A stretch of DNA of 64,000 nucleotides from an uncultured Polyangiales bacterium (GTDB lineage Bacteria; Myxococcota_A; Polyangia; Polyangiales; JADJMO01). Where the stretch lies: positions 1,438-65,437 of the forward strand of contig CAZUZY010000004.1 in assembly GCA_964624885.1 (NCBI GenBank). The letters run 5' to 3'. Below the pieces are notes generated by a model that saw only the letters and a program-made list of their open reading frames with translations, was not told the DNA's origin and made no database searches. Position numbers and translations under genes: made by a program. Below are positions 5,341 to 49,918 of the stretch, piece after piece (position 1 is the first letter of the stretch; each line of letters starts with the position of its first letter).

Positions 5341-5351
5341 GGGGTCCCGCC

Positions 5352-7561: not shown

Positions 7562-7569
7562 GGGGAAGA

Positions 7570-34245: not shown

Positions 34246-35291
34246 TGCACCGGGTGCTCGAGCGGCAGCTGCGCAAGCTGGGGCTCTCGGAGGCTCCGCC
34301 CGACGCCGCGCAGTGGCGGGCGTTCCTCGAGCGCGTGGACCAGAGCTACACGAGCGCCGACCAGGACCGCTACACACTCGAGCGCGCGCTCGACCTCTCG
34401 TCGGGCGAGATGCGCAAGCGCTTCGCCGAGCTGCGGAGCGCCCAGGACCAGCTGGTGCTGGCCTCCCGGAAGGCCGGCATGGCCGACGTCGCGACCAGCG
34501 TGCTGCACAACGTGGGCAACGTCCTCAACAGCGTGAACGTGGCCGCCAACCTGGTCTCCCAGCTCGCCAAGTCCACCACGCGCGCGGGCCTCGGCAAGAG
34601 CCTCACGCTGCTCCGCGCCCAGCCGGCGCCCGGGCGGTTCCTCGACGACGATCCGCGCGGCAAGAAGCTGCTCCAGTACCTCGATGCGATCGACAGGACG
34701 CTCGGCGAAGAGGGTCGACAGATGTCCTCCGAGCTCGAGAACCTCTCCCGGCACATCGATCACATCAAGGCCATCGTGGCCCAGCAGCTCGCGGTGGCCC
34801 GCGGGGGCAACCAGGCCCTGGTCGAGGAGCAGATCGTCCTCGGCCAGCTGCTCGACGACGCGGTGCTGGTGGTGAAGGGCTCGCTGCCGCGGCGCTCGGC
34901 GATCACGTTCGTGCGCGACTACGCGCCGTGCGTGGTCCGCGCCGATCGCCACAAGCTGTTCCAGATCGTGCTCAACCTGCTCGCCAACGCGCGCGACGCC
35001 CTCGCCGCGCGGCCGGAGGGCACCATCACGCTGCGCATCCACTCGGTGGAGAGCCAGGCGAGGGTCGACGTGGAGGACGACGGGGTGGGCATCGCCGCCG
35101 AGAACCTCGCCGAGATCTTCACCCATGGCTTCACCACCAAGCCCACGGGGAACGGCTTCGGGCTCCACTCGTCGGCGTGCGCGGCGATGGAGCTCGGGGG
35201 GAACCTCTCCGTGCACAGCGACGGTGTCGGGCGGGGCGCGCGCCTCACGCTCTGCCTGCCCTGCGAGAGACCTCTTTCAAAATCTGCCTGA
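34245..35291 (+). CDS. Cytoplasmic histidine kinase (FIST module B)
   Basis: The ATG at 34245 lies within ORF 34191..35291. The H-box variant is DVATSVLHNVGNVLNSV. The N-box is LNLLANARDAL and the G-boxes are DDGVGI and GNGFGLHSS. There is no TM segment. Confidence 0.85.
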   Translation: MHRVLERQLRKLGLSEAPPDAAQWRAFLERVDQSYTSADQDRYTLERALDLSSGEMRKRFAELRSAQDQLVLASRKAGMADVATSVLHNVGNVLNSVNVAANLVSQLAKSTTRAGLGKSLTLLRAQPAPGRFLDDDPRGKKLLQYLDAIDRTLGEEGRQMSSELENLSRHIDHIKAIVAQQLAVARGGNQALVEEQIVLGQLLDDAVLVVKGSLPRRSAITFVRDYAPCVVRADRHKLFQIVLNLLANARDALAARPEGTITLRIHSVESQARVDVEDDGVGIAAENLAEIFTHGFTTKPTGNGFGLHSSACAAMELGGNLSVHSDGVGRGARLTLCLPCERPLSKSA

Positions 35292-35300
35292 AAGCCACCC

Positions 35301-37622
35301 ATGGGAATCGAACAAGACCCCCCCGCCCGCCGCATCCTGGTCATCGACGACAACCGGTCGATCCACGAGGACTTCGAGAAGACCCTCGTCGCCACGACGC
35401 GGAGCGACGAGCTCGGGGCGCTCGAGGGAGAGCTGTTCGCCGAGACCGGTCGGCCGCCGCCGCGGGCGCCGATGAAGTTCGAGGTCTCGTTCGCCTCGGG
35501 CGGCGAGGAGGGCGCCGGGATCGCGGCCGCGGCCCTGGCCGAGGGTCGACCGTTCTCGGTCGCCTTCGTCGACATGCGCATGCCACCCGGCTGGAACGGC
35601 GTGCAGACCATCCGCCGCCTCTGGGAGCTCGACCCCGAGCTGCAGTGCGTGATCTGCACCGCCTATTCGGACTACTCCTGGGAGGACATCCTCGCCGACC
35701 TCGGCGTCAACGACCGCCTGCTGCTCCTGCGCAAGCCGTTCGACCCCGCCGAGGTGTGTCAGCTCGCCTGCGCCCTCACCGAGAAGTGGCACCTCGCTCG
35801 GCGGGCACACCTCAAGCTCGAGCAGCTGCGGGGCATGGTCGAGGAGCAGACCCGCCACCTCGAGCAGGCCAACCGCAGCCTCGCCGAGAGCGAGGCGCGC
35901 TACGCCCTCGCCGCCGAGGGCGCCAACGACGGGCTCTGGGACTGGAACCTCACGACCGGGCGAGTGTTCTACTCGCCGCGCTGGCGCGCCCTGCTCGGGA
36001 TCCCGATCGAAGGGCCGCTCGGGGACGGGCTCGAGGCGTTCTTCGACCTCGTCCACCCGGAGGACCTGCCGACGCTGCGCGCGGCGTTCGCCGACCTGCG
36101 GGACGGCGCCGCGGATCAGGTCTCGGCCGAGTACCGCATCCGGCACACGGACGGTCAGCACCGCTGGATGCTCTGCCGCGGCGCCGTGACGCGGCGCCCG
36201 GACGGTCAGCCGACGCGCGCCGCCGGCTCGCAGACCGACATCACCAACCGCAAGATGGCCGAGACGCAGCTCCGGCACGAGGCGCTGCACGACGCCCTCA
36301 CCGGCCTGCCCAACCGGGTCCTCCTCAACGAGCGCATCCAGCGCTGCCTCGCGCGCCAGCGCCGCGACCCCGCGTTCCGCTTCGTCGTCATGTTCATCGA
36401 CCTCGACCGCTTCAAGGTCATCAACGACAGCCTCGGCCACGTGATCGGCGACGCGCTCCTCGTCGCCGTGTCCGAGCGCCTCTCGTCGTGCCTGCGCGAG
36501 ACCGACACCCTCGCGGCGGTGGACGCGCAGGGGGTCGCGCGACTCGGCGGGGACGAGTTCGTGGTCCTGCTCGAGGGGGTCCGACAGGACGCGGACGCGC
36601 TGCGGGTCGCCGAGCGGCTCCTCGAGCGCGTGGCCGAGCCGGTCGTGCTGTCCGGCCACACCGTGCACGTCTCGCTCAGCATCGGCGTCGCCATCGGGCA
36701 CTCGGGCTACGAGCGCGTGGAGGACATCATCCGCGACGCCGACACCGCGCTCTACCGCGCCAAGGGCGGCGGACGCGGGCGGTACGACGTGTTCACCGAC
36801 GACCTGCACGTGGCCGCCGTCAACCGCTGGCGGACCGAGGGCGAGCTGCGCCACGCGATCGAGCACCGCGAGTTCGTGCTGCAGTACCAGCCCGTGATGT
36901 CGCTCGCGACGGGGTCGGTGACGCACTTCGAGGCGCTCGTCCGCTGGGACCACCCGACCCGAGGGCGCGTCGGTCCGCACGAGTTCATCCCGCTGGCCGA
37001 GGAGAGCGGGCTCATCGTGCCGCTCGGCCGCTGGATCCTCGCCGAGGCGTGCCGGCAGATGGAGCAGTGGCAGGCGCTCGGCGTCGCGGCGGCGGTCGCG
37101 GTGAACGTGGCGAGCAAGCAGTTCGCCCAGCCCGCGTTCGTGGACGAGGTCGGCGCGCTGCTCGAGGCGACCGGCGTGCCGGCGGACTCGCTGCGCATCG
37201 AGCTCACCGAGAGCACCACCATGGATCCCAAGGCCATCGACACCTGCAGCCGCCTCGCCGCGCTCGGGGTGCGGCTCTACCTCGACGACTTCGGCACCGG
37301 GTACTCGTCGCTCAGCTACCTCACCCGGATGCCGATCCACGCGCTCAAGATCGACCGCTCGTTCGTCGCGCGGCTGACCGAGGACCCGATGAGCGCCTCG
37401 ATCGTGCAGACCATTCTCGCCCTCGCCACGGCGCTCGGCATGGAGGCCATCGCCGAGGGGGTCGAGACGAACGCCCAGGCCGAAGCGCTGCGGAGGATGA
37501 GCTGCGCGGCCGCCCAGGGGTACCTCTGGCACCGCCCCCTCGACCCCACCCGGGCCCTCTCCCTGCTGCAGGGGGAGCCCGAGCGGTGGCCGACCGGCGC
37601 GGCGACCGCGGCCGCCGAGTGA
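35301..37622 (+). CDS. Response regulator with PAS, GGDEF and EAL domains (FIST module B output)
   Basis: 773 aa. The receiver is ILVIDDNRSIHEDF...VAFVDMRMPPGWNG...RKPF. The PAS region is NDGLWDWNLTTGRVFYSPRW. The cyclase region contains RLGGDEFVVLL. The phosphodiesterase region contains FEALVRW, ELTE and DDFGTGYSSLSYL. Confidence 0.92.
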   Translation: MGIEQDPPARRILVIDDNRSIHEDFEKTLVATTRSDELGALEGELFAETGRPPPRAPMKFEVSFASGGEEGAGIAAAALAEGRPFSVAFVDMRMPPGWNGVQTIRRLWELDPELQCVICTAYSDYSWEDILADLGVNDRLLLLRKPFDPAEVCQLACALTEKWHLARRAHLKLEQLRGMVEEQTRHLEQANRSLAESEARYALAAEGANDGLWDWNLTTGRVFYSPRWRALLGIPIEGPLGDGLEAFFDLVHPEDLPTLRAAFADLRDGAADQVSAEYRIRHTDGQHRWMLCRGAVTRRPDGQPTRAAGSQTDITNRKMAETQLRHEALHDALTGLPNRVLLNERIQRCLARQRRDPAFRFVVMFIDLDRFKVINDSLGHVIGDALLVAVSERLSSCLRETDTLAAVDAQGVARLGGDEFVVLLEGVRQDADALRVAERLLERVAEPVVLSGHTVHVSLSIGVAIGHSGYERVEDIIRDADTALYRAKGGGRGRYDVFTDDLHVAAVNRWRTEGELRHAIEHREFVLQYQPVMSLATGSVTHFEALVRWDHPTRGRVGPHEFIPLAEESGLIVPLGRWILAEACRQMEQWQALGVAAAVAVNVASKQFAQPAFVDEVGALLEATGVPADSLRIELTESTTMDPKAIDTCSRLAALGVRLYLDDFGTGYSSLSYLTRMPIHALKIDRSFVARLTEDPMSASIVQTILALATALGMEAIAEGVETNAQAEALRRMSCAAAQGYLWHRPLDPTRALSLLQGEPERWPTGAATAAAE

Positions 37623-37721
37623 GCCTGGTGAACCCAGCCAACCGGTGAGCCTGCGCCGACACCGACGAGCTCCTCCGCGCGTCGCCCGACATTGCTCTGT
37701 CGGACCGCGCGAATCGGAGCC

Positions 37722-38333
37722 ATGCTTGGCGCCGTGGACACGTTCACCGCCGCGAGTCAGCACTGTGACATCGTGGAACGCCTGGCCCGCGTGACGCCGG
37801 ATCAACAGGTCCGCGGGGTCTGGTTCGCGATGCTCCACGACGAGGTCCGGCGCCGAGGCGAGACGCTGGGCGCGGCGTTCGACGCCGAGGTCGGCGCCCC
37901 CGACTACGTCACCTTCCGCATGTATCCGGTGGCCGACTACCTGCGGCGCCTGGTGGTGGCGGGGGCCCGCGTGGCCTCGCCCGAGCGCGTGCACGAAGGC
38001 ATGCGCGACCTGCACCGCGAGTCGGTGCGCTACTTCGCGCGGAGCGTGGTCGGGCGCGCGTTCGTCTCGCTCATCCGCTTCTCCCAGACGCCCCTCGGCT
38101 TGTTCCAGCAGGTCGCACGGAGCCGCAGCCACATCGCGACCTACGGGCGCTGGCTCATCGAGCCCATCGCGACCCGGCGGGCGCGCGTGCGCATCGAGGG
38201 CGAGCCGGTCTACGTCGAGAGCGCGCAGGTCGGGGGCATCCTCAGCGTCTGTGACATGTGCGGCGTGCGCGGCGAGATCGAGCACGTCGAGATGCTGGGC
38301 CCGTTCGACGGCATCGTGGAAGTCAGCTGGTAG
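37722..38333 (+). CDS. TIGR02265/DUF2378-like protein (myxobacterial paralogous family)
   Basis: The ORF is 37692..38333; I prefer the ATG at 37722. The size and overall pattern (VRGVWFAMLHDEV, YPVADYLRRLVVAG, RDLHRESVRYF, ESAQVGGILSVCDMCG) match my memory of this family. The family call is moderate. Confidence 0.6.
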   Translation: MLGAVDTFTAASQHCDIVERLARVTPDQQVRGVWFAMLHDEVRRRGETLGAAFDAEVGAPDYVTFRMYPVADYLRRLVVAGARVASPERVHEGMRDLHRESVRYFARSVVGRAFVSLIRFSQTPLGLFQQVARSRSHIATYGRWLIEPIATRRARVRIEGEPVYVESAQVGGILSVCDMCGVRGEIEHVEMLGPFDGIVEVSW

Positions 38334-38336
38334 GGA

Positions 38337-39686
38337 TCAGCCGCTGCGACGCAGGCGATCGAGGCGGCGCTGGAACGCCTTGCGCTGCACCCCGAGCAGT
38401 CGGGCGGCGGCGCTCTTGTTGCCGTCGCACTCGAGCATGGCGGCCGTCAGCAGCTTCTCCTCGGCGATGTGCAGGCGCGAGCGGCCGTCGGGCGCGGGGA
38501 GGTGCAGCAGGGTCTGTACGGCCTCGCCGACGTCGGTCGTGGTCTCGGTGGGCGGCACGAGCGCCTCGAGGGTCGGGACGTCGACGTGGGGGTCCTCGGC
38601 GAGCACCGCGAGCCGCTCCACGACGTTGTGGAGCTCGCGCACGTTGCCCGGCCACGGCCGGTGGCGCAGCCACTCGAGCGCCTCGCGGGTGAACGTGAGG
38701 CCCCGCGGCTGGGCGGCGGCGAACGCCTCGACGAGCTCGCGCACGTCGTCGCCGCGCGCGGCGAGCGAAGGCACCGCGACCACCACCACCGACAGCCGGT
38801 GGTAGAGGTCTTCGCGGAAGAGCCCCTGGCGCACCCGGGCCAGGAGGTCGACGTGGGTGGCCGCCACGATGCGCGCGCGCAGGGCCACCTCGCGCTCGGC
38901 ACCGAGGGGTCGGAAGCTCCGATCGTCGAGCACGTGGAGCAGCTTCGCCTGCATCTCGAGCGGGAGCTCGGCGATCTCGTCGAGGAGCAGCGTGCCGCCG
39001 CCGGCGAGCTCGAGGTGCCCACGCACGCGGCGATCGGCGCCGGTGAACGCCCCGCGCTCGTGGCCGAACAACGACGACTCGACCAGCGTCGGCGGCATCG
39101 CCGCGCAGTGCACGACGACGAACGGCTCGGCCGCCCGCCGGCTCGCGCGGTGGAGCGCGCGTGCGACGAGGCCCTTGCCCGCGCCCGTCTCCCCGCGCAG
39201 GAGCACGGTGGAGGGGGTGTCGGCGACGCGCGCGATCAGCTGGCGCAGGTGCTCCATGGCCGGTGACGAGCCCAGCACCTCGTTGTGCGAGGTCACCCGC
39301 ACGCGGCTCGGCGGCGGCTCGCGGAGCTCCTCGAGCAAGGGGACGAGCACCTGCGCGCTCAGCTCGTCCTTGAGGAGGTAGTCGCGCGCGCCGAGGCGCA
39401 GGGCCTCGCGCACGTCCTCGAGCTCACTGGAGGAGGTGAGGACGATGGTGGGCAGCGCGCGGCCTGCCTGTCGGAGCTCGCGGAGCAGGTCGAAGCCGCC
39501 CCGATCGGTCGGACGATCGCTGAGGCGCACGTCGAGGATCATGGCGTCGATCGCCACGCGCTCGAGGGCGAGGCGGGCCGTGGCGACGTCTTCGGCCTCG
39601 ATCACGTCGACGTCTCCGAGGCGACCGATCATCGCGCGCAGGACCTGCCGCAGACGGCGGCTGTCCTCGACCAACAGGATTTTCAC
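38337..39686 (-). CDS. Sigma54-dependent enhancer-binding response regulator (NtrC family)
   Basis: The ORF is 38337..39836; I prefer the GTG at 39686 (VKILLVEDS). The receiver has DAMILDVRLSD. The AAA+ domain has Walker A GETGAGKG, the GAFTGA loop (ERGAFTGA), and LLLDEI. The C-terminal Fis-type HTH is GNKSAAARLLGVQRKAFQRRL. Confidence 0.92.
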   Translation of the reverse strand: MKILLVEDSRRLRQVLRAMIGRLGDVDVIEAEDVATARLALERVAIDAMILDVRLSDRPTDRGGFDLLRELRQAGRALPTIVLTSSSELEDVREALRLGARDYLLKDELSAQVLVPLLEELREPPPSRVRVTSHNEVLGSSPAMEHLRQLIARVADTPSTVLLRGETGAGKGLVARALHRASRRAAEPFVVVHCAAMPPTLVESSLFGHERGAFTGADRRVRGHLELAGGGTLLLDEIAELPLEMQAKLLHVLDDRSFRPLGAEREVALRARIVAATHVDLLARVRQGLFREDLYHRLSVVVVAVPSLAARGDDVRELVEAFAAAQPRGLTFTREALEWLRHRPWPGNVRELHNVVERLAVLAEDPHVDVPTLEALVPPTETTTDVGEAVQTLLHLPAPDGRSRLHIAEEKLLTAAMLECDGNKSAAARLLGVQRKAFQRRLDRLRRSG

Positions 39687-39713
39687 GGGGTCCAAACATA
39701 CGTCGCCGTGGGC

Positions 39714-39745
39714 CGTTTTCGACCCCGACCTGGACGTTTCCGACC
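39714..39745 (+). promoter_or_regulatory. Direct repeat CGTTT(T/C)CGACC x2 (period 21 bp); candidate upstream activator site
   Basis: The copies are at 39714-39724 and 39735-39745, with 10 of 11 bases identical. They lie 57-88 bp upstream of the -24 element, between the EBP gene and its putative target promoter. Confidence 0.3.
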
Positions 39746-39800
39746 AGCCGACACCTCCCACGCCGACTCCCTCGACCGGCGTCTGCCCTACATCCACCCA

Positions 39801-39816
39801 CGGCACGGTCGATGCT
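39801..39816 (+). promoter_or_regulatory. Sigma54 (-24/-12) type promoter for the ThDP-enzyme/KASIII operon
   Basis: cGGCACGgtcgaTGCt has GG at 39802-39803 and GC at 39814-39815, exactly 10 nt apart. It matches GGCACG-N4-(T)TGC. An RBS-like gggagga at 39836-39842 and the ATG at 39848 follow. A sigma54 EBP gene is divergently adjacent. Confidence 0.65.
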
Positions 39817-39847
39817 CTCGCGCGGCGCGAACCCACGGGAGGATTCC

Positions 39848-41572
39848 ATGCACACCCAGGAAATCGAGCTCAGTCCACGTCCACAGAGCCGCACGTCGAG
39901 CGAGACGAGCGGTGCGCACCTGCTGCTCGACACGCTCCTCGGCCACGGCATCGACGTCGTGTTCGGCTTGCCGGGCGGCACGATCATGCCGCTGTACGAC
40001 GCGCTCGGGGATCGGTCGGCGATCGAGGTGGTGACGTGTCGTCACGAGACGGCCGCGATGTTCGCCGCGATGGGTTACGGGCGAGCGACCGGTCGACCCG
40101 CGCTCGTGCTCGTGACGTCGGGGCCGGGCCTCACCAACGCGCTCACGGGCCTCGCCGCGGCGGCGTGCGAGGGGATCCCGCTCCTCGTCGTCGCGGGCGA
40201 GATCTCCACCGCGAGCGTCGGGCGCTTCGCGCTGCAGGACGGGAGCCCGAGTGGGCTCGACGTCCTCTCGTTGACCCGCCCCCTCACCCGCTTCTCCGCG
40301 CGCGTCGATCGGCCGACCGCGCTGGAGGCGCTGGTCCGGAGGGCGCTGGCCGAAGCGACCGGCCCCCGCCCCGGCCCGGTGTTCCTATCGCTGCCGCTCG
40401 ACGTCGCGCGGGCCAAGGTGCGTCCCCACAGCCTGGGCGGCGCGGTCCAGGCGACCCACGAGACGACCGACCGGAGCGCGTGCGAGGCAGCGGCGCGGCT
40501 CCTCGGGCGCGCCACGCGCCCGGCGATCGTGCTCGGCAACGGCGCGCGCGAACGGGGCCTGTCCACGCTGGTGGAGGAGATCGCCGAGCGGACCCACGCG
40601 ATGGTCACGGCCACGACCCACGGCAAGGGCGCGTTCCCGGAGCGCCACCCACGCTACCTCGGGGTCCTCGGATTCGGGGGCCACGCACGGGCGCTCGACT
40701 ACCTCGCGAGCGCCGACCTCACGCTGGTGGTCGGGTCGCGCCTCGGGGACATCTCGACCAACGGCTGGACGGTCTCGTTCGGTGGCCCGCTGGTCCACGT
40801 CGACCGGGATCCCACGGCGATCGGGCGCAACCACCCGACGGAGCTGGGCATCGTCGGCGACGCCCGCGCGAGCCTCGCGGCGATCCGCGCGGCGCTGCCG
40901 GCGCGCGCCTCGTACGCACCGCACCCCTCGGGCCTCGCCCTCGACGAGGACCCCCGGCGCGCCGACACCAGCGTGCCCCTCAAGCCCCAGTGGTTGATGG
41001 CGACCCTCGAGCGCGCGCTGCCCCGATCGACGATCTTCACGGTCGACATCGGCGAGCACGCCGCGTTCGCGGTGCACCACCTCCGGGTCGACGGGCCGGA
41101 GCGGTTCCACATGTTCGCCGGGCTCGGCTCGATGGGGAGCGGGATCTGCGCCGCCATGGGGTTCAAGGTCGCCCACCCGAACACGCCCGTGGTCGCGATC
41201 TGCGGCGACGGCGGCCTCGCGATGCACGCGGGCGAGCTGCTCACCTGCGCGGAGAACGGCATCAACGTGACGTTCGTGGTCCTGAACGACGGGCGCTACC
41301 GGATGGTCGACGCCGGCCTCCAGCACATCTTCGGGCGACGCTCACCAGGCCTCCCGGCCCACGTGGCCGACCTCGCGAGCCTGGCCCGCGCCTGCGGGGT
41401 GATCGGCGTCACGGTCGACGCGCCGGGCGACCTCGACTCGCGGCGACTGTCCGCGCTCTTGTCGATCCAGCGCCCCGTGGTGCTGGACGTGCGCATCGAC
41501 CCGAGCGAGCACCTCTCGATCCAGACGCGGCTCGCCTCGCTCAAGCACTTCTCCGAGGAGGGTGGACGATGA
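39848..41572 (+). CDS. Thiamine-diphosphate-dependent enzyme, acetolactate-synthase-like
   Basis: The ORF is 39812..41572; I prefer the ATG at 39848. The N-terminal Pyr domain has GIDVVFGLPGG...RHETAAMFAAMGY...TSGPGLTNALTGLAAA. The ThDP-binding motif is GDGGLAMHAGELLTCAENGINVTFVVLNDGRY. Confidence 0.9.
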   Translation: MHTQEIELSPRPQSRTSSETSGAHLLLDTLLGHGIDVVFGLPGGTIMPLYDALGDRSAIEVVTCRHETAAMFAAMGYGRATGRPALVLVTSGPGLTNALTGLAAAACEGIPLLVVAGEISTASVGRFALQDGSPSGLDVLSLTRPLTRFSARVDRPTALEALVRRALAEATGPRPGPVFLSLPLDVARAKVRPHSLGGAVQATHETTDRSACEAAARLLGRATRPAIVLGNGARERGLSTLVEEIAERTHAMVTATTHGKGAFPERHPRYLGVLGFGGHARALDYLASADLTLVVGSRLGDISTNGWTVSFGGPLVHVDRDPTAIGRNHPTELGIVGDARASLAAIRAALPARASYAPHPSGLALDEDPRRADTSVPLKPQWLMATLERALPRSTIFTVDIGEHAAFAVHHLRVDGPERFHMFAGLGSMGSGICAAMGFKVAHPNTPVVAICGDGGLAMHAGELLTCAENGINVTFVVLNDGRYRMVDAGLQHIFGRRSPGLPAHVADLASLARACGVIGVTVDAPGDLDSRRLSALLSIQRPVVLDVRIDPSEHLSIQTRLASLKHFSEEGGR

Positions 41573-42633
41573 GCGCCACGATCCACGGCCTCGGGCTCTA
41601 CCTGCCCGAGACGGTACGGCGCAACGAGGACTGGCCGCCCTCGTTCCGCGAGCAGTTCGAGCGCCTGCGCCGCGACGACCTCACCCGCATCGATCCCGCC
41701 GACGACGCGATTGGAGCCCTCGCCGAGCGCCACGCCGCGATCCACGAGCGCGACCCGTTCCGCGGCGCGCGGCAACGGCACGTCGCCGTCGAGACGACCT
41801 CGAGCGAGGCCGGGGCCCGGGCGGCAGAGGCTGCCCTCGCGGACGCCGGGATCGACGCCTCGGAGGTGGACCTCGTGCTCTCGCACGCGCTCGTGCCCGA
41901 GCGCGTGTCGCCCCCGGATGCGGCCCGCATCGCGGCGCACCTCGGCATCCGGCGGGCGGCGGCGCTGGGGCTCGACGCGGTGTGCGCTTCGGTGATCGCG
42001 CAGCTCGTGGTGGCGAGCGCGATGATCGAGAGCGGCCGCGCGCGTCGTGTGCTCCTCGTGCAGTCGCACCTCGTGTCACCCACGCTCGACTGGACGAAGC
42101 CGGCGTCGGCGATCTTCGGCGACGCGGCCACCGCGCTGGTGGTCGGGCCGGGCGCGCCCGGTGAGGGGCTCCGCGCCGATGTGGCCTCCGTCGACGGCGC
42201 GATGCACGCGGCCGTGAGCTTCGAGCGGCGGGAGGGGACGCCCTGGTACACCGGGGGTGAAGCGATGCACCCGGCGAGCGCGGATCGCGCGGCCACCCAG
42301 CGCATGACGTCGCGCCTCCTGCACTTCGGCGTCGACACGCTCGGCGCCCTGTTCGACCGCGCGCACATCCACGGCGGTGACGTCGACGTGCTCGCCACCA
42401 TCCAGCCCGCCGCGTGGTACCCGACAGCACTCGGCGAAGCGGTGGGGGTGCCGCGGGGCCGCGCCCCTTCGACCTTCGACCGCATCGCGCACGTCGGGGC
42501 CTGCGGCGTGGTTGCCAACCTGCTCGAAGCGCGCGCGCAGGGGCTGCTCGTGCCCGGTGCCCAGGTGGTCCTCTACGCGCACGGCGCGGGGATGAACTGT
42601 GTGGCAGCTCTGCTCCGATGGGGGCAAAGGTAG
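41569..42633 (+). CDS. KASIII (FabH)-like thiolase-fold protein with non-canonical active-site motifs
   Basis: The in-frame ATG at 41569 lies within ORF 39436..42633 and overlaps the upstream stop (ATGA). The FabH-like layout has the Cys motif LGLDAVCASVIAQL. The position of PHQAN reads ATIQPAAW, and the position of HGNTSAAS reads AHVGACGVV. Confidence 0.8.
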   Translation: MSATIHGLGLYLPETVRRNEDWPPSFREQFERLRRDDLTRIDPADDAIGALAERHAAIHERDPFRGARQRHVAVETTSSEAGARAAEAALADAGIDASEVDLVLSHALVPERVSPPDAARIAAHLGIRRAAALGLDAVCASVIAQLVVASAMIESGRARRVLLVQSHLVSPTLDWTKPASAIFGDAATALVVGPGAPGEGLRADVASVDGAMHAAVSFERREGTPWYTGGEAMHPASADRAATQRMTSRLLHFGVDTLGALFDRAHIHGGDVDVLATIQPAAWYPTALGEAVGVPRGRAPSTFDRIAHVGACGVVANLLEARAQGLLVPGAQVVLYAHGAGMNCVAALLRWGQR

Positions 42634-42677
42634 GAGTCACAAGCGGGACACGAGCGGGCTGCTAAGCTGTCTCGACG

Positions 42678-44165
42678 ATGTCGGGGCGGCCGTTCACAAC
42701 CCACATCCTCACGACGCCCTCGCGAGCGACCGCCGTCCGCCAGGCGCTGCTCGCGTCTGGCGTCGACGCGCAGTTGCTGGTCGGGGAGATCACCCTGCTC
42801 GCGGAGACGCTCCGCAAGGGCGACCCCTCGGTGGTGCTCATCGGCGTCGCCGACGAGGGCGTTCATCGCGGCTGCCTCGACGAGATCATCTCCTATCGCG
42901 CGCTCACCCCGGAGCTGCTCGCCCTCGCGGCGCGCACGAGTGTCGAGCGGGTGGCCATGGTCTCTCGCCTGGCAGACGCCGAGCGTTCGAGCCGCCACAA
43001 GGAGCAGCTCGCGTCCCTCGGGGTGGTGGTCGCGGGCGCGATGCACGAGATCAACAACCCGACCGCCGCCCTGCGGCTCAGCATGGAGGCCCTCGGAGAC
43101 CTGGTCGGCGAGCTGCGCACCGAGGTGGCCCGCCTCGAGGAGCTGCTCGTGGCCCCGGGCGCGCACGAGCTCGAGGCGGCGCGAGCCTCCGTCGGTCAGC
43201 TGCACGCGCTCTTGCGGGAGGACGGCGCCACGAGCCTCATCGGTGACTCGCTCGAGGACCTGCACGTGATCCGCGACGTCGCCCGCGATCTGCGCACCAT
43301 CGCCTCGGTGGAGTCGAAGGACGTGGCGCCCGAGATCGTCAACGTGGCCACCGTCGTCAAGCAGGCGCTGCGCCTCTCCCCGATCGATCCCGACGTCGTG
43401 CACGTGGAGCTCGACTTCTCCGATCCGGTCCCGCTGCTCTGGCTCCCACGCTCGCGACTCGTCCAGATCGTGAGCAACCTGGTGACCAACGCCTGCCACG
43501 CGATGCAGCAGATCGAGCGGCCGATGCACCGCCTGCGGATCAGCGTGCGCGAGGACGAGACCACCCTCTTGCTCGCGGTCAGCGACACCGGCATCGGCAT
43601 CGAGCCCGAGGTGCTGCCGTCGGTGTTCGAGCCGTTCTTCACGACCAAGGGCCCCGAGCGCGGCACCGGGCTCGGCCTCTCGATGTCGCGCGAGATCGTG
43701 CGGCGCCTCGGTGGCGATCTGTGCATCGACGCCATCGCCGGTGAGGGCGCCATCGCGATGGTGTTCCTGCCCCTCAGCCTCCGCGCCGACGTCACGCCCC
43801 CGCCGAGCGACCGTCAACGGCCGCGGGTGCTGCTCGTCGACAGCGACTTCGAGCGACTGCGGCGCATGGAGCGCGCGCTGCGCCACGACTTCGAGGTGCT
43901 CGTCGCGCAGAGCGGGCTCGACGCGCTCGCGTTGCTGGAGTCGGGCGCGCGCGTCGACGGGATCCTCGGCGAGGCGACGATGCGCGAGATGGACGGGGAG
44001 GCGTTCCTCGGCGAGGTGAAGGCGCACTGGCCCAGCCGTCAGCGGCACGTCGTCCTCTATGGCAGCGAGACGCCGGTCGAGGGTGTTCGGGTCGCGCACT
44101 GCCCGAGCGACGACGCGGCGTGGCTCGCGCTCGCCCGAGAGGCCACCGGGATGGCCTTGCACTAG
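42678..44165 (+). CDS. Hybrid sensor histidine kinase (pseudo-receiver N-terminus, HisKA, HATPase, C-terminal receiver-like domain)
   Basis: 495 aa. The H-box is GAMHEINNPTAAL. The N-box is VSNLVTNACHAM and the G-boxes are DTGIGI and GTGLGLSMS. The C-terminal region is VLLVDSDFERL...DGILGEATMREMDG. It starts 45 nt downstream of the KASIII-like gene. Confidence 0.88.
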   Translation: MSGRPFTTHILTTPSRATAVRQALLASGVDAQLLVGEITLLAETLRKGDPSVVLIGVADEGVHRGCLDEIISYRALTPELLALAARTSVERVAMVSRLADAERSSRHKEQLASLGVVVAGAMHEINNPTAALRLSMEALGDLVGELRTEVARLEELLVAPGAHELEAARASVGQLHALLREDGATSLIGDSLEDLHVIRDVARDLRTIASVESKDVAPEIVNVATVVKQALRLSPIDPDVVHVELDFSDPVPLLWLPRSRLVQIVSNLVTNACHAMQQIERPMHRLRISVREDETTLLLAVSDTGIGIEPEVLPSVFEPFFTTKGPERGTGLGLSMSREIVRRLGGDLCIDAIAGEGAIAMVFLPLSLRADVTPPPSDRQRPRVLLVDSDFERLRRMERALRHDFEVLVAQSGLDALALLESGARVDGILGEATMREMDGEAFLGEVKAHWPSRQRHVVLYGSETPVEGVRVAHCPSDDAAWLALAREATGMALH

Positions 44166-44313
44166 TCGCGTACGTCGAAGAAGGGCATCCACCTACATCC
44201 ACGCCGTCTCGGTGCACGGACGAATGTCACGTGGCGCAGACACGGGAGATGGCGAATTCTCCGGTGTTCTGGCCGTGAGGCGGGGTGGTACGCGGATTGA
44301 ACTGTCGCCGGTC

Positions 44314-45162
44314 ATGACGCTCGCTCGCTCCCTCGTGGTGGTGCTCTCGCTCGGTCTCGTCGTGGGCTGCGCTGCCCAGCACGAAGACCCGAGCGACGCG
44401 CTGGTCGGTGCGGAGGAGCCCGACGACGACGCCGACCTGCGCGGCGCGGAATCGGTGACCGACACCCTCGCGGCGGGCGCGCAGCTGCGGACCAACGCGG
44501 CGCTCAACCTGCGGGCGAGCCCTTCGAAGAGCGCGACGATCCTCGAGGTGATGCCGGAGGGCACGCTCGTCACCGCCGTCACCGGGAAGCCGAGCGCGGG
44601 CTGGTATCAGGTGAAGCACGGCGCGAAGACGGGCTGGGCCTACGGCGTCTACCTCGACCGCGTGACGAGCAGCGGAGGCTCCACCGCCGCCGGCGGCTCG
44701 TGCTCGCCCGCGCGCGCCATCGGGATCGTGAGCGCGCCCAAGAAGGCGCTGCTCGACACGATCGCCTACGCCGAGGGCACGCGGGGCTACAGCCAGGATG
44801 GCTACGACGTGATGTTCTCGTTCAAGACCTTCAGCAGCTGCGACAGCCACCCGCGCCAGACGCTCTGCTCGGGTGGGTACTGCTCGACGGCGGCCGGGCG
44901 CTACCAGTTCCTCTCCACCACCTGGGACGGCCTCAAGCTGCCGAACTTCCGCCCCGAGAACCAGACCACCGGCGCCATGACCCTCATCGCCTGGCGCAAG
45001 GCGACCATCCCGGCCGACCGTCCGCTCACCGCGACCGAGTTCACCAACGTGATGAACAAGATCTCGTACGAGTGGGCCTCGCTGCCGCCGGGGCGCTACG
45101 GGCAGCCGATCAAGACGATGTCGCAGCTGCGCACCGAGTACTGCAAACTCGCCAAGTGCTGA
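44314..45162 (+). CDS. SH3b-domain plus GH104 (lambda-R-type) lytic transglycosylase lipoprotein
   Basis: The ORF is 44059..45162. The ATG at 44314 gives MTLARSLVVVLSLGLVVGCAA. The SH3b-like segment is LNLRASPSKSATILEVMPEGTLV...GWYQVKH..KTGWAYGVYL. The GH104 motifs are LLDTIAYAEGT, GYDVMF, DSHPR, AAGRYQFL and EWASLPPGRYGQ, compared with phage lambda R from memory. Confidence 0.85.
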   Translation: MTLARSLVVVLSLGLVVGCAAQHEDPSDALVGAEEPDDDADLRGAESVTDTLAAGAQLRTNAALNLRASPSKSATILEVMPEGTLVTAVTGKPSAGWYQVKHGAKTGWAYGVYLDRVTSSGGSTAAGGSCSPARAIGIVSAPKKALLDTIAYAEGTRGYSQDGYDVMFSFKTFSSCDSHPRQTLCSGGYCSTAAGRYQFLSTTWDGLKLPNFRPENQTTGAMTLIAWRKATIPADRPLTATEFTNVMNKISYEWASLPPGRYGQPIKTMSQLRTEYCKLAKC

Positions 45163-46103: not shown

Positions 46104-47456
46104 ATGCTCCGGACGGAGACAGGCACGCGCGCACCGAGGGCAGCGGCCATCACAGCCGACTTCTTGCACGAGCCACCGAGCGAACGGGTGACCGTCCCTT
46201 CCGTCCTGTCTCCTGGCCAGCAGGTCGACGGACGCTTCTGCCTCGAGCAGCCGCTCGGCGCCGGCGCCCAGGCCGACGTCTGGCGCGCGCGGGACATCCA
46301 CCTCGAGCGGCACGTCGCGCTCAAGGTGTTGCGGGGGTCGGCGGCCACGGGGTTGCACAGCGCGGCGCGCTTCCGGCGGGAGGCGGCCATGCTCGCCCGC
46401 CTGCGCAGCGCGCACCTGGCGACCATCTTCGGCTTCGGCTTCATCGAAGGCGAGCCCTACTTCGCGATGGAGCTCGTGGACGGCAAGAGCCTGCTCGAGC
46501 TCTGGGACGTGCACCTCGAGGCCCAGCGCCCGATGCCGCTCGGTCGCACGGTGGAGATCGTGGCGGACGCCGCGCGGGGCCTCTCGGTCGCGCACGCGCA
46601 GGGCATCGTCCACCGCGACGTCAAGCCCGAGAACGTGATGATCGAGGACGACACCGGTCGGGTGGTCGTCGTGGACTTCGGCGTCGCGCTGGATCGCGAC
46701 GACGTCGGCGACGGCATGATCTACGGCACCCCGGAGTACCTGGCGCCCGAGCTCTTGCGGGGCTCTCCGGCGAGCGCGCTGAGCGATCAGTACGGGCTCG
46801 CGCTGATCGCCTACGAGCTCCTGGTCGGATCGCTGCCGTTCGCGCACGAGCCCGCCACGATGCAGATCCTCCGGCGCGGCGAGGAGGGGCTGCCTGCCCC
46901 GTCGATCGCCCGGGCGGAGCTCGCGCCGCTCGACCGCGTGCTGCTCCGCGCGCTGTCGCCCGATCCCGCGGAGCGCTATCCGACCTGCGTGGCGCTGGGG
47001 AACGCCCTGACGCAGGCGATCGGCGGCCCGGCCCACGCGGCCCTCGACGGCAACGTGCGGGTGCTCGTCGTCGACGACGATCCGCTGTTCGGTCGGCTCG
47101 TGACGCGGTGCCTGCACGTGGCGCTCGCCGGGATCCCGCTGACCATCGAGCGCGCGACGGATCCGCGCGCGGCCCTCGAGAAATGCCGACAAGAGCTGCC
47201 CGAGCTCGTCGTGCTCGACTACGCGATGCCGGGGATGGACGGCGTGGAGCTCCTCTCGCAGGTGCGCGCGCTCCCCGAGGGCGACGCGGTGCGAGCCGTC
47301 GTCCTGAGCGGCGCCACCGACAACCAGACGCGACTGCGGTTCGCCATGCTCGGCGTGCGCACCTTCGCGACCAAGCCGATCGACTTCGAGGCCCTCGTGA
47401 CGACCCTGCGACGGCTGGCGCGATCGAACGGGTGGGTCACCGCAGGGGTCGAATGA
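46104..47456 (+). CDS. Ser/Thr protein kinase fused to a C-terminal receiver domain
   Basis: 450 aa. Hanks motifs are present: GAGAQADVW, VALKVL, HRDVKPENVMI, DFGVA and GTPEYLAPE. The receiver follows: VLVVDDDPLF...LVVLDYAMPGMDG...TKPI. Confidence 0.9.
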   Translation: MLRTETGTRAPRAAAITADFLHEPPSERVTVPSVLSPGQQVDGRFCLEQPLGAGAQADVWRARDIHLERHVALKVLRGSAATGLHSAARFRREAAMLARLRSAHLATIFGFGFIEGEPYFAMELVDGKSLLELWDVHLEAQRPMPLGRTVEIVADAARGLSVAHAQGIVHRDVKPENVMIEDDTGRVVVVDFGVALDRDDVGDGMIYGTPEYLAPELLRGSPASALSDQYGLALIAYELLVGSLPFAHEPATMQILRRGEEGLPAPSIARAELAPLDRVLLRALSPDPAERYPTCVALGNALTQAIGGPAHAALDGNVRVLVVDDDPLFGRLVTRCLHVALAGIPLTIERATDPRAALEKCRQELPELVVLDYAMPGMDGVELLSQVRALPEGDAVRAVVLSGATDNQTRLRFAMLGVRTFATKPIDFEALVTTLRRLARSNGWVTAGVE

Positions 47457-49918
47457 CCGACGAGGGGGTGGCCGCCGAGCAGACGGATCTGGTCCGTCTG
47501 CATCGCTTCTCGGCCATCGTGGCGCTGGCCTGGGCGGCGTTCGCCCTGTTGCACCTCTTCATGGGTCGAAGACTCCTCGCGCTGGTCCACGTGGGGGCGG
47601 CGGCGCTGGCGGGGATCGGCGTGCTCCTCGCGCGTCGGACCGCGCGCGGCCCGTCGCTCTCGATCGTCGCGATGAGCTCGTGCGTCGCGCTGGTGGTCGT
47701 CACCGTGCTGACCGGCGGCGCGCGCGCGCCGACCATGGTGTACCTGGCCCTCCTCCCGCTCGTGACCGGCCTGTTCCGGCGGCCCCTCGTGCGGAGGACG
47801 TGGCTCGCGGTGGCGCTGCTCGCCATCGTCGCCATCCCGCCGCTCACGACGCTGCTCGGCAGCGACGTCGTCCAGCCAGGCCCCTTCGAGCAGGTGTTCG
47901 TCGTGGTCGCGCTCGCGCTGATCCTCTACGGGTTCGGCAGCGAGTGGCGGGCCTCGAGCGACGCGCTGGTGACGCTGCTCGAGGCGCGGCGACGCACGAT
48001 CGAGGGGCAGGCCGAGGAGGTCCAGCGGGCGCACGACGACGCGGTGAAGGCCTCGGAGAACAAGAGCCGCTTCGTCGCCATGACCAGCCACGAGCTGCGC
48101 GGGCCGCTCAACGGGATGCTGGGCATGAGCCAGGCGCTCGCGGACACCCGTCTCACCGACAACCAGCGCGAGCTGGTACGCGCGCTCACCACGAGCGCCG
48201 AGTCGCTCTCTCGGCTGCTCAGCGACCTGCTGGACATCGCCCGCATCGAGGCCGGACGCGTCGAGGTGGTGCTCAAGGACACCGACGTGCGCGGGCTCGT
48301 CGCCGACGTGGTCGACACCTTCGCCACCGAGGCCGACGCCAAGGGCCTCGACATCGTCGCCATCGCGGATCTCACCGTGCCCGCGGTGGTGAGCGCCGAC
48401 GCGGGCCGGCTCGCCCAGGTGCTGCGGAACCTGGTCTCCAACGCCGTGAAGTTCACCGAGAAGGGCGCGGTGACGGTCTCGCTCACCCGCGAGGAGGCGA
48501 CCCTGTGGATCTCGGTGAAGGACACCGGCCGGGGGATGAAGAAGGAGGACGTCGGTCGGATCTTCCTCCCCTTCGAGCAAGTTTCCGCCGAGCTGGTCGA
48601 CCGCCGCGCCGGCACGGGGCTCGGCCTGTGGATCGCGCGGAGCTTCGTCGAGAGCTGGGGTGGGACCATCGTCGTGGACTCGGCGCTCGGGCAAGGGACC
48701 GAGTTCCGGGTCGCGATCCCGCTCGGCCCCGAGGAGGTGAATCCACGGTTCACGACGCTGATGGGCATGCCCGTGCTCGTCGTGATCACCCAGCGGCCGG
48801 CCACCGCCCAGGCGTTCCTCGCCGTCGGTCGGGAGATCGAGGCGCGGGTGGTGCACGCCACCTCCGCCGACGATATCCTGGCCGCGGGTCGCCTCGACGC
48901 ACGGGCCCTGATCGTGGACACGGCGCACGGCGGGCTCGACCTCGCCGACGCGCTCGCGCCCCTGCGGCTCAAGGCGCGCCTCGTCCTCGCGGCGACCGCG
49001 AGTCAGCTCGCGGAGGCCGAGAAGCTCGCCGCCAAGCTCGAGGCGCGGGTGATGCTGCTCCCACCGCGCGCCTCGCGGCTGCTCGCGGCGCTCGAGGCGC
49101 CCCACCGCGCCCTCACCCACCGCCCGAGCTACCACACCCCCTCGACCGTCGACGCCACCCTGCTGGTCGTGGACGACGACGCGATCAACCGTCGCGTGGC
49201 GCGGCACGCGGCCCAGCAGCTCGGCCTGCGGGTGCTCGAGGCGGCGTCCGGCGAGAAGGCGCTCGAGGTGCTCGGGCGAGTGACGGTGGATCTGGTGCTG
49301 CTCGACCTCCACCTCGAGGGGATGGACGGCGACGAGGTCGCGCGACGCATCTGCGCGAGCCCCACCGCGCCCGCCATCATCGCCTACACGGGCAGCGTGA
49401 ACGAGGCGGACCGGCGGCGCTTGCTCGAGGCCGGCGTCACGGAGATCCTCGCGAAGCCGCTCGATCGCGGCTCGTTCCTCGGCGCCGTCAACCGAGCGAT
49501 GAACGCGCGACGCCAGCAGGCGCGCAAGACCGGCCGGTCCCTCAAGCTCGACGTGCTCGACCCCGGCGCGCTGGACGAGCTCACCAAGATCATGGGCGAA
49601 GAGGTGCCCGACATGATCACCGAGTTCCTCCCGCAGCTTCGCGCCCGGGTCGACAAGATCGTGGCGGCCGCCATCGAGGGCGAGCTCGCCCAGGTCGGCG
49701 CGGAGTCACACTCGCTCGCTTCCACGGCGGCGACCTTCGGCGCCCTGCGGGTCGCGATCATCGCGCGCACCCTCGAGGCCGCGGCCCACAAGCAGGACCT
49801 CGGCCGGGCGCGCCCGCTGTCGAGCGCCCTCGCCGAGGCGGCAGAGGAGAGCGTCCCGCTGCTCGAGGCCGAGGCGCGAGCGAGGGCCACAGATCCTCGG
49901 GCTTCTTCGCGCGTGTAA
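47453..49918 (+). CDS. Membrane-bound hybrid histidine kinase with pseudo-receiver, receiver and HPt domains
   Basis: The in-frame ATG at 47453 lies within ORF 47108..49918 and overlaps the kinase stop (ATGA). There are about 6 TM helices. The H-box is MTSHELRGPLNGMLG, the N-box is LVSNAVKFT, and the G-boxes are DTGRGM and GTGLGLWIA. The receiver is LLVVDDDAINR...LVLLDLHLEGMDG. The HPt region is AESHSLASTAATFGA. Confidence 0.9.
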   Translation: MTDEGVAAEQTDLVRLHRFSAIVALAWAAFALLHLFMGRRLLALVHVGAAALAGIGVLLARRTARGPSLSIVAMSSCVALVVVTVLTGGARAPTMVYLALLPLVTGLFRRPLVRRTWLAVALLAIVAIPPLTTLLGSDVVQPGPFEQVFVVVALALILYGFGSEWRASSDALVTLLEARRRTIEGQAEEVQRAHDDAVKASENKSRFVAMTSHELRGPLNGMLGMSQALADTRLTDNQRELVRALTTSAESLSRLLSDLLDIARIEAGRVEVVLKDTDVRGLVADVVDTFATEADAKGLDIVAIADLTVPAVVSADAGRLAQVLRNLVSNAVKFTEKGAVTVSLTREEATLWISVKDTGRGMKKEDVGRIFLPFEQVSAELVDRRAGTGLGLWIARSFVESWGGTIVVDSALGQGTEFRVAIPLGPEEVNPRFTTLMGMPVLVVITQRPATAQAFLAVGREIEARVVHATSADDILAAGRLDARALIVDTAHGGLDLADALAPLRLKARLVLAATASQLAEAEKLAAKLEARVMLLPPRASRLLAALEAPHRALTHRPSYHTPSTVDATLLVVDDDAINRRVARHAAQQLGLRVLEAASGEKALEVLGRVTVDLVLLDLHLEGMDGDEVARRICASPTAPAIIAYTGSVNEADRRRLLEAGVTEILAKPLDRGSFLGAVNRAMNARRQQARKTGRSLKLDVLDPGALDELTKIMGEEVPDMITEFLPQLRARVDKIVAAAIEGELAQVGAESHSLASTAATFGALRVAIIARTLEAAAHKQDLGRARPLSSALAEAAEESVPLLEAEARARATDPRASSRV

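Follow-up and report, generated by a model that had tools for sequence, protein, structure and literature searches.

An enzyme pair resembling acetolactate synthase and FabH lies among regulatory genes in a 64,000-nucleotide stretch of DNA from an uncultured Polyangiales bacterium (the window), which raises the question of what the two enzymes make and how they relate to the signalling proteins around them. An earlier note had read the region as a self-contained sigma54 cassette, with the pair as the sole cargo of a hybrid kinase and an activator, and had suggested production or turnover of a small acyloin- or alpha-hydroxyketone-type metabolite, possibly a signal. Every gene that it reported lies at the coordinates given, as does the -24/-12 element, and its domain calls are correct. 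The features of the region are as follows.

37722-38333, plus strand: DUF2378 (TIGR02265) protein, 203 aa (Pfam PF09536 and TIGR02265 matches)
38337-39689, minus strand: NtrC-type sigma54 activator, REC-AAA+-HTH, 450 aa (Response_reg, Sigma54_activat, AAA_lid_14, HTH_8)
39690-39847, no strand: divergent intergenic control region, 158 bp (aligns over its full length with related loci L005 and L006)
39801-39816, plus strand: candidate sigma54 -24/-12 promoter, CGGCACGgtcgaTGCT (direct sequence reading)
39848-41572, plus strand: acetolactate-synthase-like ThDP carboligase, 574 aa (TPP_enzyme N, M and C domains)
41569-42633, plus strand: atypical KASIII-like (thiolase-fold) enzyme, 354 aa (ACP_syn_III, ACP_syn_III_C)
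42678-44165, plus strand: cytoplasmic histidine kinase, 495 aa (HATPase_c match)

The first of these genes had been missed, the interval having ended 3 nt short of it.

A conserved four-gene module

In the window, one lineage carries its own form of a four-gene cassette from uncultured soil myxobacteria. About 45 informative related loci in Polyangia metagenome-assembled genomes (MAGs) were surveyed, and the unit conserved among them consists of the genes for DUF2378, the ThDP and KASIII-like enzymes and the histidine kinase. The ThDP gene lies directly 5' of the KASIII-like gene in all 20 KAS-seeded loci with upstream sequence; DUF2378 is found no more than 3 kb away in 18 of these, and the kinase adjoins in 16 (tblastn) and in two more by Pfam. 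The reciprocal search seeded with DUF2378, which adjoins the module in most related loci, recovered these partners again, with their order shuffled (L040, L041, L043, L049, L050, L057 and L070). Gene order varies among the loci and the surrounding genes are unrelated, with flanking genes matching 0-1 other loci as against 32-61 for the module genes. The same DUF2378 gene, identical over its 203 aa, is also called in public contigs.

Most related loci encode neither a response regulator nor a transporter. The activator gene, which separates the DUF2378 and ThDP genes, is an insertion specific to the lineage, with orthologues only in L005, L006, L034, L010 (without the REC domain) and L022. Since the activator and its promoter are limited to the window lineage and a few others, they represent an add-on rather than part of the core. 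With no activator in most related loci, the cassette is not the self-contained sigma54 unit of the earlier note. The module itself is made of two sub-pairs, DUF2378/kinase and ThDP/KASIII-like.

The enzyme pair

The ThDP and KASIII-like genes share the ATGA overlap described before and are translationally coupled. The ThDP enzyme falls under every curated family cutoff, its best NCBIfam match being TIGR00118 (377.8 bits, cutoff 538), and 18 orthologues share both the RHE catalytic Glu and the GDGG...ND motif. Its nearest solved structures are carboligase-like ones other than AHAS, namely BbmA (E 4e-92) and CsmA, with AHAS following. The AF2 model of the KASIII-like enzyme (pLDDT 93.7) has FabH as its best fold match, and the protein scores 127 against the NCBIfam FabH cutoff of 249. 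In the alignment the active-site Cys is kept, Ile278 takes the place of the FabH His and His308 that of the FabH Asn, indicating a Cys139/His308 dyad that replaces the Cys-His-Asn triad of FabH. The catalytic substitutions are common to the whole KASIII-like family.

An ordinary acetolactate synthase for branched-chain amino acids, together with a FabH for fatty-acid initiation, would accord with TIGR00118 and FabH as the best family-level matches and with the FabH fold. This explanation, already doubted in the earlier note, is effectively refuted: both scores lie far under their cutoffs, the FabH His and Asn are replaced, ilvN, ilvC and ACP were not found nearby, and the enzyme family is restricted to Polyangia MAGs. 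The reported absence of ACP, reductase, transporter and branched-chain amino-acid genes holds within about 6 kb of the window cassette, whose neighbours are signalling proteins throughout.

The pair probably builds a small acyloin-type molecule. The precedent mentioned in the earlier note, a ThDP acyloin synthase with a KS-like partner, is real: in carbazole biosynthesis the ThDP enzyme CqsB3/NzsH passes its product to the KASIII-like CqsB1/NzsJ (PMC7466098). This biosynthetic core raises the idea that the pair is a fragment of a conventional carbazole-like or xenocyloin-like natural-product cluster lying by chance among signalling genes; in L001/L007 the pair adjoins a B12-radical SAM enzyme and a flavin monooxygenase, and L061 carries additional KASIII-like paralogues. 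We regard such a fragment as very unlikely, given that DUF2378 and the kinase are the only genes conserved with the pair, with no carbazole-synthase-like, ACP, aminotransferase or tailoring genes, and that the canonical KASIII His/Asn pair is missing.

The enzymes could also act in the opposite direction, with DUF2378 sensing an exogenous acyloin, diketone or alkyl-ketone such as a prey signal. The ThDP enzyme would then be a lyase that breaks a C-C bond of this compound, and its thiolase-fold partner would transfer the acyl fragment to CoA. C-C lyases occur among AHAS-like ThDP enzymes, a Cys/His dyad is suited to acyl transfer, and the host clade is predatory. In M. xanthus and C. ferrugineus, HHQ, a quinolone signal of prey, induces DUF2378 genes (PMC9257966). 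Among PDB matches, however, the ThDP protein is much nearer to the carboligases (313 bits to BbmA, 230 to AHAS) than to the 2-hydroxyacyl-CoA lyases (about 162 bits, E ~1e-46), and no conserved downstream catabolic genes adjoin the module. Degradation of a signal or xenobiotic is accordingly rated as quite unlikely.

Sensor-like protein, kinase and control region

The DUF2378 protein is predicted to adopt an H-NOX fold and to be sensor-like. Its AF2 model has a pLDDT of 92, and the top 42 Foldseek PDB matches are all H-NOX or sGC heme domains (TM-scores up to 0.68-0.75), with no detectable sequence similarity to Pfam HNOB. No conserved His is present in the helix matching the heme proximal-ligand helix, where an invariant Pro is aligned with low confidence; given that low confidence, DUF2378 may nonetheless be a haem or gas sensor.

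DUF2378 and the kinase may sense an unrelated cue (such as NO, O2 or redox state), as H-NOX does, with no ligand connecting sensor and enzymes and with the latter as a merely co-expressed response that, for example, makes a protective or storage metabolite or reroutes 2-oxo acids. Bacterial H-NOX genes classically adjoin kinase genes, and the fold matches are all H-NOX. The sub-pairs are also found apart in a few loci, the enzymes without the sensor in L001/L007 and the sensor and kinase without the enzymes in L060, so that coupling of sensor and enzymes is not obligate. Against this count the Pro at the proximal-ligand position and the roughly ten loci in which the enzyme genes lie between the sensor and kinase genes, a linkage that outlasts repeated rearrangement and would be unusual for a mere output. 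We consider an unrelated cue somewhat unlikely, and linkage to a sensor-like protein strengthens the idea that the pair may make a signal.

The kinase gene begins 44 nt past the KASIII-like stop codon. From the N-terminus onward its product has a pseudo-receiver-like region, the H-box AGAMHEINNP, the catalytic domain and, at the C-terminus, a pseudo-receiver, with no transmembrane segment or recognisable sensor domain. Sixteen aligned orthologues share the H-box His, and 14 of them, the window protein included, have Glu rather than Asp at the receiver phospho-site. The C-terminal receiver is degenerate, its Response_reg match scoring 22.6 bits where the Pfam cutoff is 30.2, and as it lacks the Asp that would accept phosphate, the kinase is not the true hybrid it had been taken for. 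Direct transfer to the receiver of the activator is easier to envisage for a kinase whose own receiver lacks the phospho-Asp.

The activator start was placed at GTG 39689 (VKILLVED), and its GAFTGA motif is intact. In the 39690-39847 control region no sigma70-like promoter or terminator and no convincing activator-binding repeat were found. The candidate promoter is correctly spaced (GG-N10-GC), departs from TGGCACG-N4-TTGCW at 2 positions, and lies 32 nt 5' of the ThDP ATG at 39848, which is preceded by a GGGAGGA ribosome-binding site. Elements at the equivalent position are CGGCACGCTCGGTGCT in L005, CGGCATGCTCGGTGCT in L006 and CGGCACGACAGGTGCT in L010, giving a near-identical CGGCACG-N4-xTGCT 5' of the ThDP gene in three loci that, like the window, also encode the activator. 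Moderate -24/-12-like matches also occur in L004, L018 and L023, where no activator lies nearby. The motif is not enriched in the GC-rich window (12 matches with at most 2 mismatches, 7.5 +/- 2.5 in shuffles), and it is position and conservation in activator-carrying relatives, rather than motif count, that make the candidate promoter credible. The proposed activator-promoter link is plausible in this light, and the first interpretation as a whole is partly supported.

A possible signalling loop and its closest known systems

Drawing on gene linkage, fold and analogy, we tentatively propose, as a possibility a little short of even, that the region elaborates, in a lineage-specific way, the conserved Polyangia (Myxococcota) module: the two enzymes would produce an acylated molecule of acyloin type, DUF2378 and the kinase would sense it, and the activator would close the loop. 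By analogy with CqsB3/CqsB1 and PqsBC, the KASIII-like enzyme would be acylated at Cys139 by acyl-CoA or acyl-ACP and would then condense or esterify the acyl group with the ThDP product, a step that would not need the malonyl-decarboxylation machinery lost in this enzyme. As linkage and fold suggest, DUF2378 would bind the resulting small hydrophobic acyloin derivative and tune kinase autophosphorylation, as H-NOX proteins do with partner kinases. In the window and its close relatives the kinase, whose own receiver would be unable to accept phosphate, would then phosphorylate the REC domain of the adjacent activator, which would drive the 39801-39816 promoter and transcription of the ThDP, KASIII-like and kinase genes. 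Such positive feedback through the activator would be typical of autoinducer systems. With its sensor-like protein, kinase and two enzymes, the module makes the region a candidate for a chemical signalling system so far undescribed.

Compared with IlvB/IlvI and FabH, the enzymes have the same folds and cofactor motifs (ThDP catalytic Glu and GDG...N(D); KASIII-like active-site Cys), and differ in their sub-threshold scores, the lack of a regulatory subunit, the missing FabH His/Asn pair and the narrow taxonomic range. The carbazole core resembles the window pair in combining an acetolactate-synthase-like ThDP carboligase with a KASIII-like partner, a likeness of enzyme type. The cassette lacks the carbazole synthase (CqsB2), ACP, second KASIII and aminotransferase, and belongs to a myxobacterium rather than an actinomycete. 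Its KASIII-like enzyme shows Cys/Ile/His where the triad would be, and the pair keeps company with signalling genes instead of tailoring enzymes. PqsBC/PqsD of alkylquinolone signal synthesis, in which an acyl-Cys intermediate is condensed with a beta-keto acid to give the signal, are likewise thiolase-fold KASIII-like enzymes with an incomplete triad, and are among the structural and sequence matches, with sequence similarity at superfamily level only (E ~1e-11). PqsC keeps the first His and has lost the Asn (Cys/His), the opposite of the KASIII-like family of the module, in which that His is lost and a His occupies the Asn position.

On the sensory side, H-NOX proteins with associated histidine kinases, such as Shewanella HnoX/HnoK and Vibrio H-NOX/HqsK, share with the module a stand-alone H-NOX-fold protein of about 200 aa beside a soluble kinase without its own sensor domain. 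DUF2378 differs in its lack of detectable HNOB similarity and of a conserved His at the aligned proximal-ligand position, and in being coupled, with the kinase, to two biosynthetic-type enzymes, an arrangement that is not known for H-NOX systems. In CqsA/CqsS and LqsA/LqsS an alpha-hydroxyketone signal synthase is encoded beside its sensor kinase, and in Vibrio the output reaches the sigma54 activator LuxO. CqsA is a PLP-dependent acyl-CoA transferase and CqsS a membrane receptor kinase, whereas the module has a ThDP and thiolase-fold pair and a separate soluble sensor-like protein. If the proposed loop is correct, the module would be a functional analogue of these systems, with an acyloin-type signal synthase beside a sensor kinase.

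The four-gene module and its conservation

The window has a GC content of ~71% and is assigned to a myxobacterium, because it carries a DUF2378/TIGR02265 gene and its best related loci are Myxococcales/Polyangiaceae MAGs. An earlier note on this DNA had proposed a self-contained sigma54 cassette at 38337-44165. All the elements it listed were found, and its domain calls were right (Pfam matches, intact GAFTGA). The boundaries of the unit were wrong, as that interval just misses a DUF2378 gene. The features of the locus are as follows:

37722-38333: DUF2378 gene, ending 3 nt before the activator stop codon
38337-39689, minus strand: NtrC-type activator gene, with REC, sigma54 AAA+, lid and HTH_8 domains
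39801-39816: candidate -24/-12 element, CGGCACGgtcgaTGCT, with GG-N10-GC spacing
39848-41572: ThDP enzyme gene, with three TPP domains and an ATGA overlap with the next gene
41569-42633: KASIII-like gene
42678-44165: histidine kinase gene, starting 44 nt after the KASIII-like gene

We fetched 23 genome loci with the KASIII-like protein as the seed and mapped the window proteins onto them by tblastn and Pfam. The ThDP gene lies directly upstream of the KASIII-like gene in 20/20 loci having upstream sequence. A DUF2378 gene is located at most 3 kb away in 18 loci, and tblastn finds an adjacent homologous kinase in 16 loci, to which Pfam adds two (L009 and L011). The most frequent order, on one strand, is DUF2378 > ThDP > KASIII-like > kinase (loci L004, L013, L014, L016, L018-L021, L023, and L025). 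A reciprocal scan of metagenome contigs plus one 2.3-Mb contig, with DUF2378 as the seed, recovered these four genes, differently arranged, wherever the contig was long enough, for example DUF2378 > kinase with a convergent enzyme pair, or ThDP > DUF2378 > KASIII-like. In most loci, DUF2378 adjoins the kinase or is one enzyme pair apart from it. Module genes have 32-61 matches in other loci, versus 0-1 for flanking genes. The linkage of the four genes is therefore well supported, and the conserved partners of the ThDP/KASIII-like pair are DUF2378 and the kinase, not the sigma54 activator. L001/L007 contain the enzyme pair without DUF2378 or kinase, with a B12-radical SAM enzyme and flavin monooxygenase as neighbours, and L060 contains DUF2378 and the kinase without the enzymes, which suggests that the module consists of two sub-pairs.

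Some loci show further variation. L001/L007 (JBGAKG010000008.1, locus coordinates 4228-10535) hold the closest non-identical enzyme pair (KASIII-like identity 69%), and their flanking genes for a B12-binding radical SAM enzyme and an FMO-like flavoprotein look more like a small biosynthetic cluster. Locus L061 (8844-12546) has DUF2378 > ThDP followed by three KASIII-like matches of 33%, 27%, and 40% identity, an arrangement suggestive of a duplicated or diversified thiolase-fold component.

The neighbours within ~6 kb all belong to signalling: Crp-like, FIST, kinase, REC-PAS-GGDEF-EAL, SH3, Ser/Thr kinase-REC, and hybrid kinase-Hpt proteins. Their domain calls bear out the claim that no ACP, reductase, transporter or ilv gene is located within this distance. 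The locus could also be viewed as a fragment of a conventional biosynthetic cluster, for which an adjacent ThDP and thiolase-fold pair would be suitable cargo; with these neighbours, we find that quite improbable.

The genes around the module form signalling groups of their own. The run of genes directly upstream of DUF2378 and on its strand (33073-37622) constitutes a second signalling operon, devoted to cyclic-di-GMP turnover; its products are a FIST-domain protein, a histidine kinase, and a protein with REC-PAS-GGDEF-EAL architecture. The DUF2378 gene follows it after 99 nt and may be co-transcribed with it. The GGDEF-EAL neighbour is kept in loci L034 and L028 and was not detected in L005 and L006. 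Downstream, the gene for a Ser/Thr protein kinase-receiver fusion (46104-47456) overlaps the next one (47108-49918), which encodes a hybrid histidine kinase carrying REC and Hpt domains; L005 and L006 conserve this neighbourhood.

The ThDP and KASIII-like enzymes

The ThDP enzyme retains the catalytic Glu (RHE) and the GDGG...ND motif, both of which are kept in 18 orthologues. Its closest family is the biosynthetic AHAS large subunit (TIGR00118), with a score of 377.8 bits versus a cutoff of 538.35, and it also falls below the cutoffs of all other AHAS and ALS models. No regulatory small subunit or ilv gene was found among the neighbours within ~6 kb or conserved across the loci. Among solved structures, BbmA (E 4e-92) and CsmA (E 3e-75) come closest, followed by AHAS (E ~1e-67); literature searches returned no function for BbmA or CsmA. 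For the xenocyloin enzymes XclA/B/C, a lead from the earlier note, the literature search gave review mentions only. The public gene calls of the ThDP enzyme in loci L003 and L004 carry Pro/Ala-rich N-terminal extensions of ~70-110 residues (683 and 646 aa versus 574), which may be genuine or else stem from wrongly called start codons in GC-rich DNA.

The KASIII-like family is almost confined to Polyangia MAGs and metagenomes. A word-indexed search returned 59 clusters and then generic FabH at E 5e-12, and an exhaustive search returned 132 representatives at E ≤1e-30. The predicted structure is FabH-like (pLDDT 93.7), and the protein scores 127 bits versus 249 for NF006829 and 118 versus 292 for TIGR00747 in NCBIfam. 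Cys139 is invariant in the family. The position of the FabH His is occupied by Ile278, which varies among I/V/T/S/A across the family, and that of the FabH Asn by a nearly invariant His308. Among 140 full-length sequences out of the best 150 representatives, ~40 have this Cys-x-His pattern, whereas neighbouring clades have Cys-His-Ser (48) or the canonical Cys-His-Asn (17). We rejected a canonical FabH/KASIII assignment, as the Cys-His-Asn triad is absent and the scores are below the cutoffs. The absence of the His/Asn pair speaks against decarboxylation of malonyl-ACP and agrees with an acyl-Cys chemistry in which the nucleophile is self-activating. The Cys-His-Ser clade (48/140) lies within a wider KASIII-like radiation that shares an N-terminal extension, and we know of no characterised member of it.

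Another reading of the pair, ordinary AHAS plus FabH, draws on these family resemblances. It is contradicted by the curated cutoffs, the active-site residues, the genomic context and the taxonomic range, and we regard it as effectively refuted. That the enzymes stand outside primary metabolism, as the earlier note had argued, thus holds: both score below curated cutoffs, the FabH His/Asn pair is replaced, and no ACP or ilv gene is nearby.

DUF2378, the kinase and the sigma54 layer

The DUF2378 family (TIGR02265) is specific to myxobacteria and comprises multiple paralogues; the literature assigns it no function (PMC9257966). By sequence, no solved relative was found and Pfam HNOB was not detected, and the best 120 matches of a profile search all belong to the same subfamily. 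An AlphaFold2 model built with 17 family members reached a pLDDT of 92. Its top 42 Foldseek matches in the PDB are all H-NOX or soluble guanylate cyclase haem domains (best E 7e-7, TM-scores up to 0.68-0.75), and the predicted structure places the DUF2378 subfamily in the H-NOX fold. H-NOX proteins are marked by a proximal haem-ligating His and a Y-x-S-x-R haem-propionate motif. An hhalign alignment to a provisional Tt H-NOX sequence had a probability of only 2.5%; its topology is sensible, and at this low confidence it sets His102 opposite the invariant Pro124, in a helix without an invariant His. Haem binding by DUF2378 is therefore doubtful. If the protein were nevertheless a gas or redox sensor, as the haem-domain matches might suggest, the enzymes would be its mere co-regulated output, an explanation that we consider unlikely, if still a serious one.

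The kinase lacks transmembrane segments and any known sensor domain. The alignment of 16 orthologues reveals a receiver-resembling N-terminus of ~95 residues, an H-box conserved as AGxxHEINNP, a catalytic ATP-binding domain, and a C-terminal receiver-like domain. In 14/16 sequences, including that of the window, Glu replaces the phospho-accepting Asp of the C-terminal receiver; the window protein also lacks the conserved Lys, and its REC match in Pfam scores 22.6 against a cutoff of 30.2. The Glu substitution and the missing Lys indicate that the kinase is not a functional hybrid, so the label "hybrid" given to it before has to be dropped. Lacking a phospho-Asp, it could phosphorylate a separate regulator directly.

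The start of the activator was placed at the GTG giving VKILLVED. With Pfam scores of 64.6 (Response_reg), 211.8 (Sigma54_activat), and 36.3 bits (HTH_8), and an intact GAFTGA loop (ERGAFTGA in the translation), its predicted product has the features of an NtrC-type bacterial enhancer-binding protein. The candidate element CGGCACGgtcgaTGCT lies 32 nt upstream of the ThDP ATG (39848), which is preceded by a GGGAGGA ribosome-binding site, and fits a sigma54 promoter by its GG-N10-GC spacing and TGGCAC/TTGCW-like context. At up to two mismatches, the sigma54 motif occurs 12 times in the window versus 7.5 ± 2.5 in shuffles. As this count in GC-rich DNA is not above chance, we relied on comparative evidence. 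Activator orthologues occur only in L005, L006, and L034, which are close relatives of the window (~90% identical), and in L010 and L022. In L005, L006 (one change), and L010, the element CGGCACG-N4-xTGCT likewise precedes the ThDP gene at the corresponding place. The ThDP protein of L010 is only 54% identical to that of the window, and the intergenic DNA would accordingly not be alignable otherwise. This co-occurrence of element and activator is the best evidence for a real promoter served by the activator. The two do not always go together: in L004, L018, and L023, moderate -24/-12 matches occur without an activator nearby. Weak inverted repeats in the 158-bp intergenic region offered no convincing activator-binding sites, and a sigma70 promoter and terminator scan of 37500-44600 found nothing. 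The loop of activator, promoter, and kinase in the earlier note is thus plausible, but sigma54 control is not central; with an activator in few related loci, it is an add-on to the module. Overall, the observation in that note is confirmed and its interpretation partly supported.

Two further observations concern sigma54 elements. The activator downstream in L010 (12487-13455) consists of AAA+ and HTH domains with no REC, and CGGCACG...TGCT still precedes the ThDP gene; without a receiver, its control must differ from phosphorylation. Elsewhere in the window, TGGCACGTCGATAGCA (601-616) and TGGCTCGGCCATTGCT (59679-59694) match the sigma54 consensus better, with 1 mismatch each, and may be other sigma54 promoters.

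A proposed signalling circuit and its precedents

Little is understood of how myxobacteria, which are social predators, signal with small molecules. PqsBC, a KASIII-like enzyme with an incomplete triad, condenses an acyl-Cys with a beta-keto acid to yield a signal. By analogy with PqsBC and with the carbazole enzymes discussed below, the pair may combine central 2-oxo acids with an acyl-CoA or acyl-ACP to give an acylated acyloin or hydroxy-diketone. DUF2378 would bind this product and control the kinase; in the lineage of the window, the kinase would phosphorylate the adjacent activator, which would drive the sigma54 promoter of the ThDP, KASIII-like, and kinase genes and close a positive feedback. 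For this full chain, in which the chemistry and the ligand relation are inferred, our confidence falls somewhat short of even. The lasting linkage of the enzymes to DUF2378 and the kinase despite rearrangement makes a product-binding DUF2378 the most economical reading. In its specific form, with DUF2378 as a haem-less H-NOX-fold receptor for an endogenous acyloin-derived autoinducer made by the ThDP/thiolase-fold pair, the proposal is speculative and, taken singly, unlikely. The module might instead sense and degrade an exogenous acyloin or diketone signal, a reading that we judge improbable. The prey quinolone signal HHQ is known to induce two DUF2378 genes (PMC9257966).

The components are of known kinds, and we found no description of the combination of an H-NOX-fold DUF2378, a sensorless kinase, a ThDP carboligase, and a Cys/His KASIII-like enzyme. 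A DUF2378 subfamily that travels with a sensorless kinase and a two-enzyme small-molecule pathway provides a testable handle on the family and a direct experimental route to DUF2378 function, possibly to a new myxobacterial signal. The analysis also delimits a clade of KASIII-like enzymes whose Cys/His active site is unusual. If DUF2378 is indeed the receptor, the module would represent a class of cell-cell signalling system that has so far gone unrecognised in Polyangia, and this myxobacteria-specific family would obtain its first functional assignment.

Two known systems resemble parts of the module. In carbazole biosynthesis, a ThDP carboligase passes its product to a KASIII-like enzyme (PMC7466098). 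The ThDP and KASIII-like genes are adjacent here as well, a likeness known from gene arrangement; beyond its own family, the KASIII-like search returned nothing closer than generic FabH. Unlike in the carbazole cassette, CqsB2/NzsI, a dedicated ACP, and an aminotransferase are absent from the window neighbours, and none is conserved across the loci. The ThDP plus KASIII-like logic of actinomycete carbazoles would extend to another phylum and to a signalling context. The second resemblance is to H-NOX/partner-kinase systems: DUF2378 likewise has an H-NOX fold, according to the model, and a histidine kinase gene close by.
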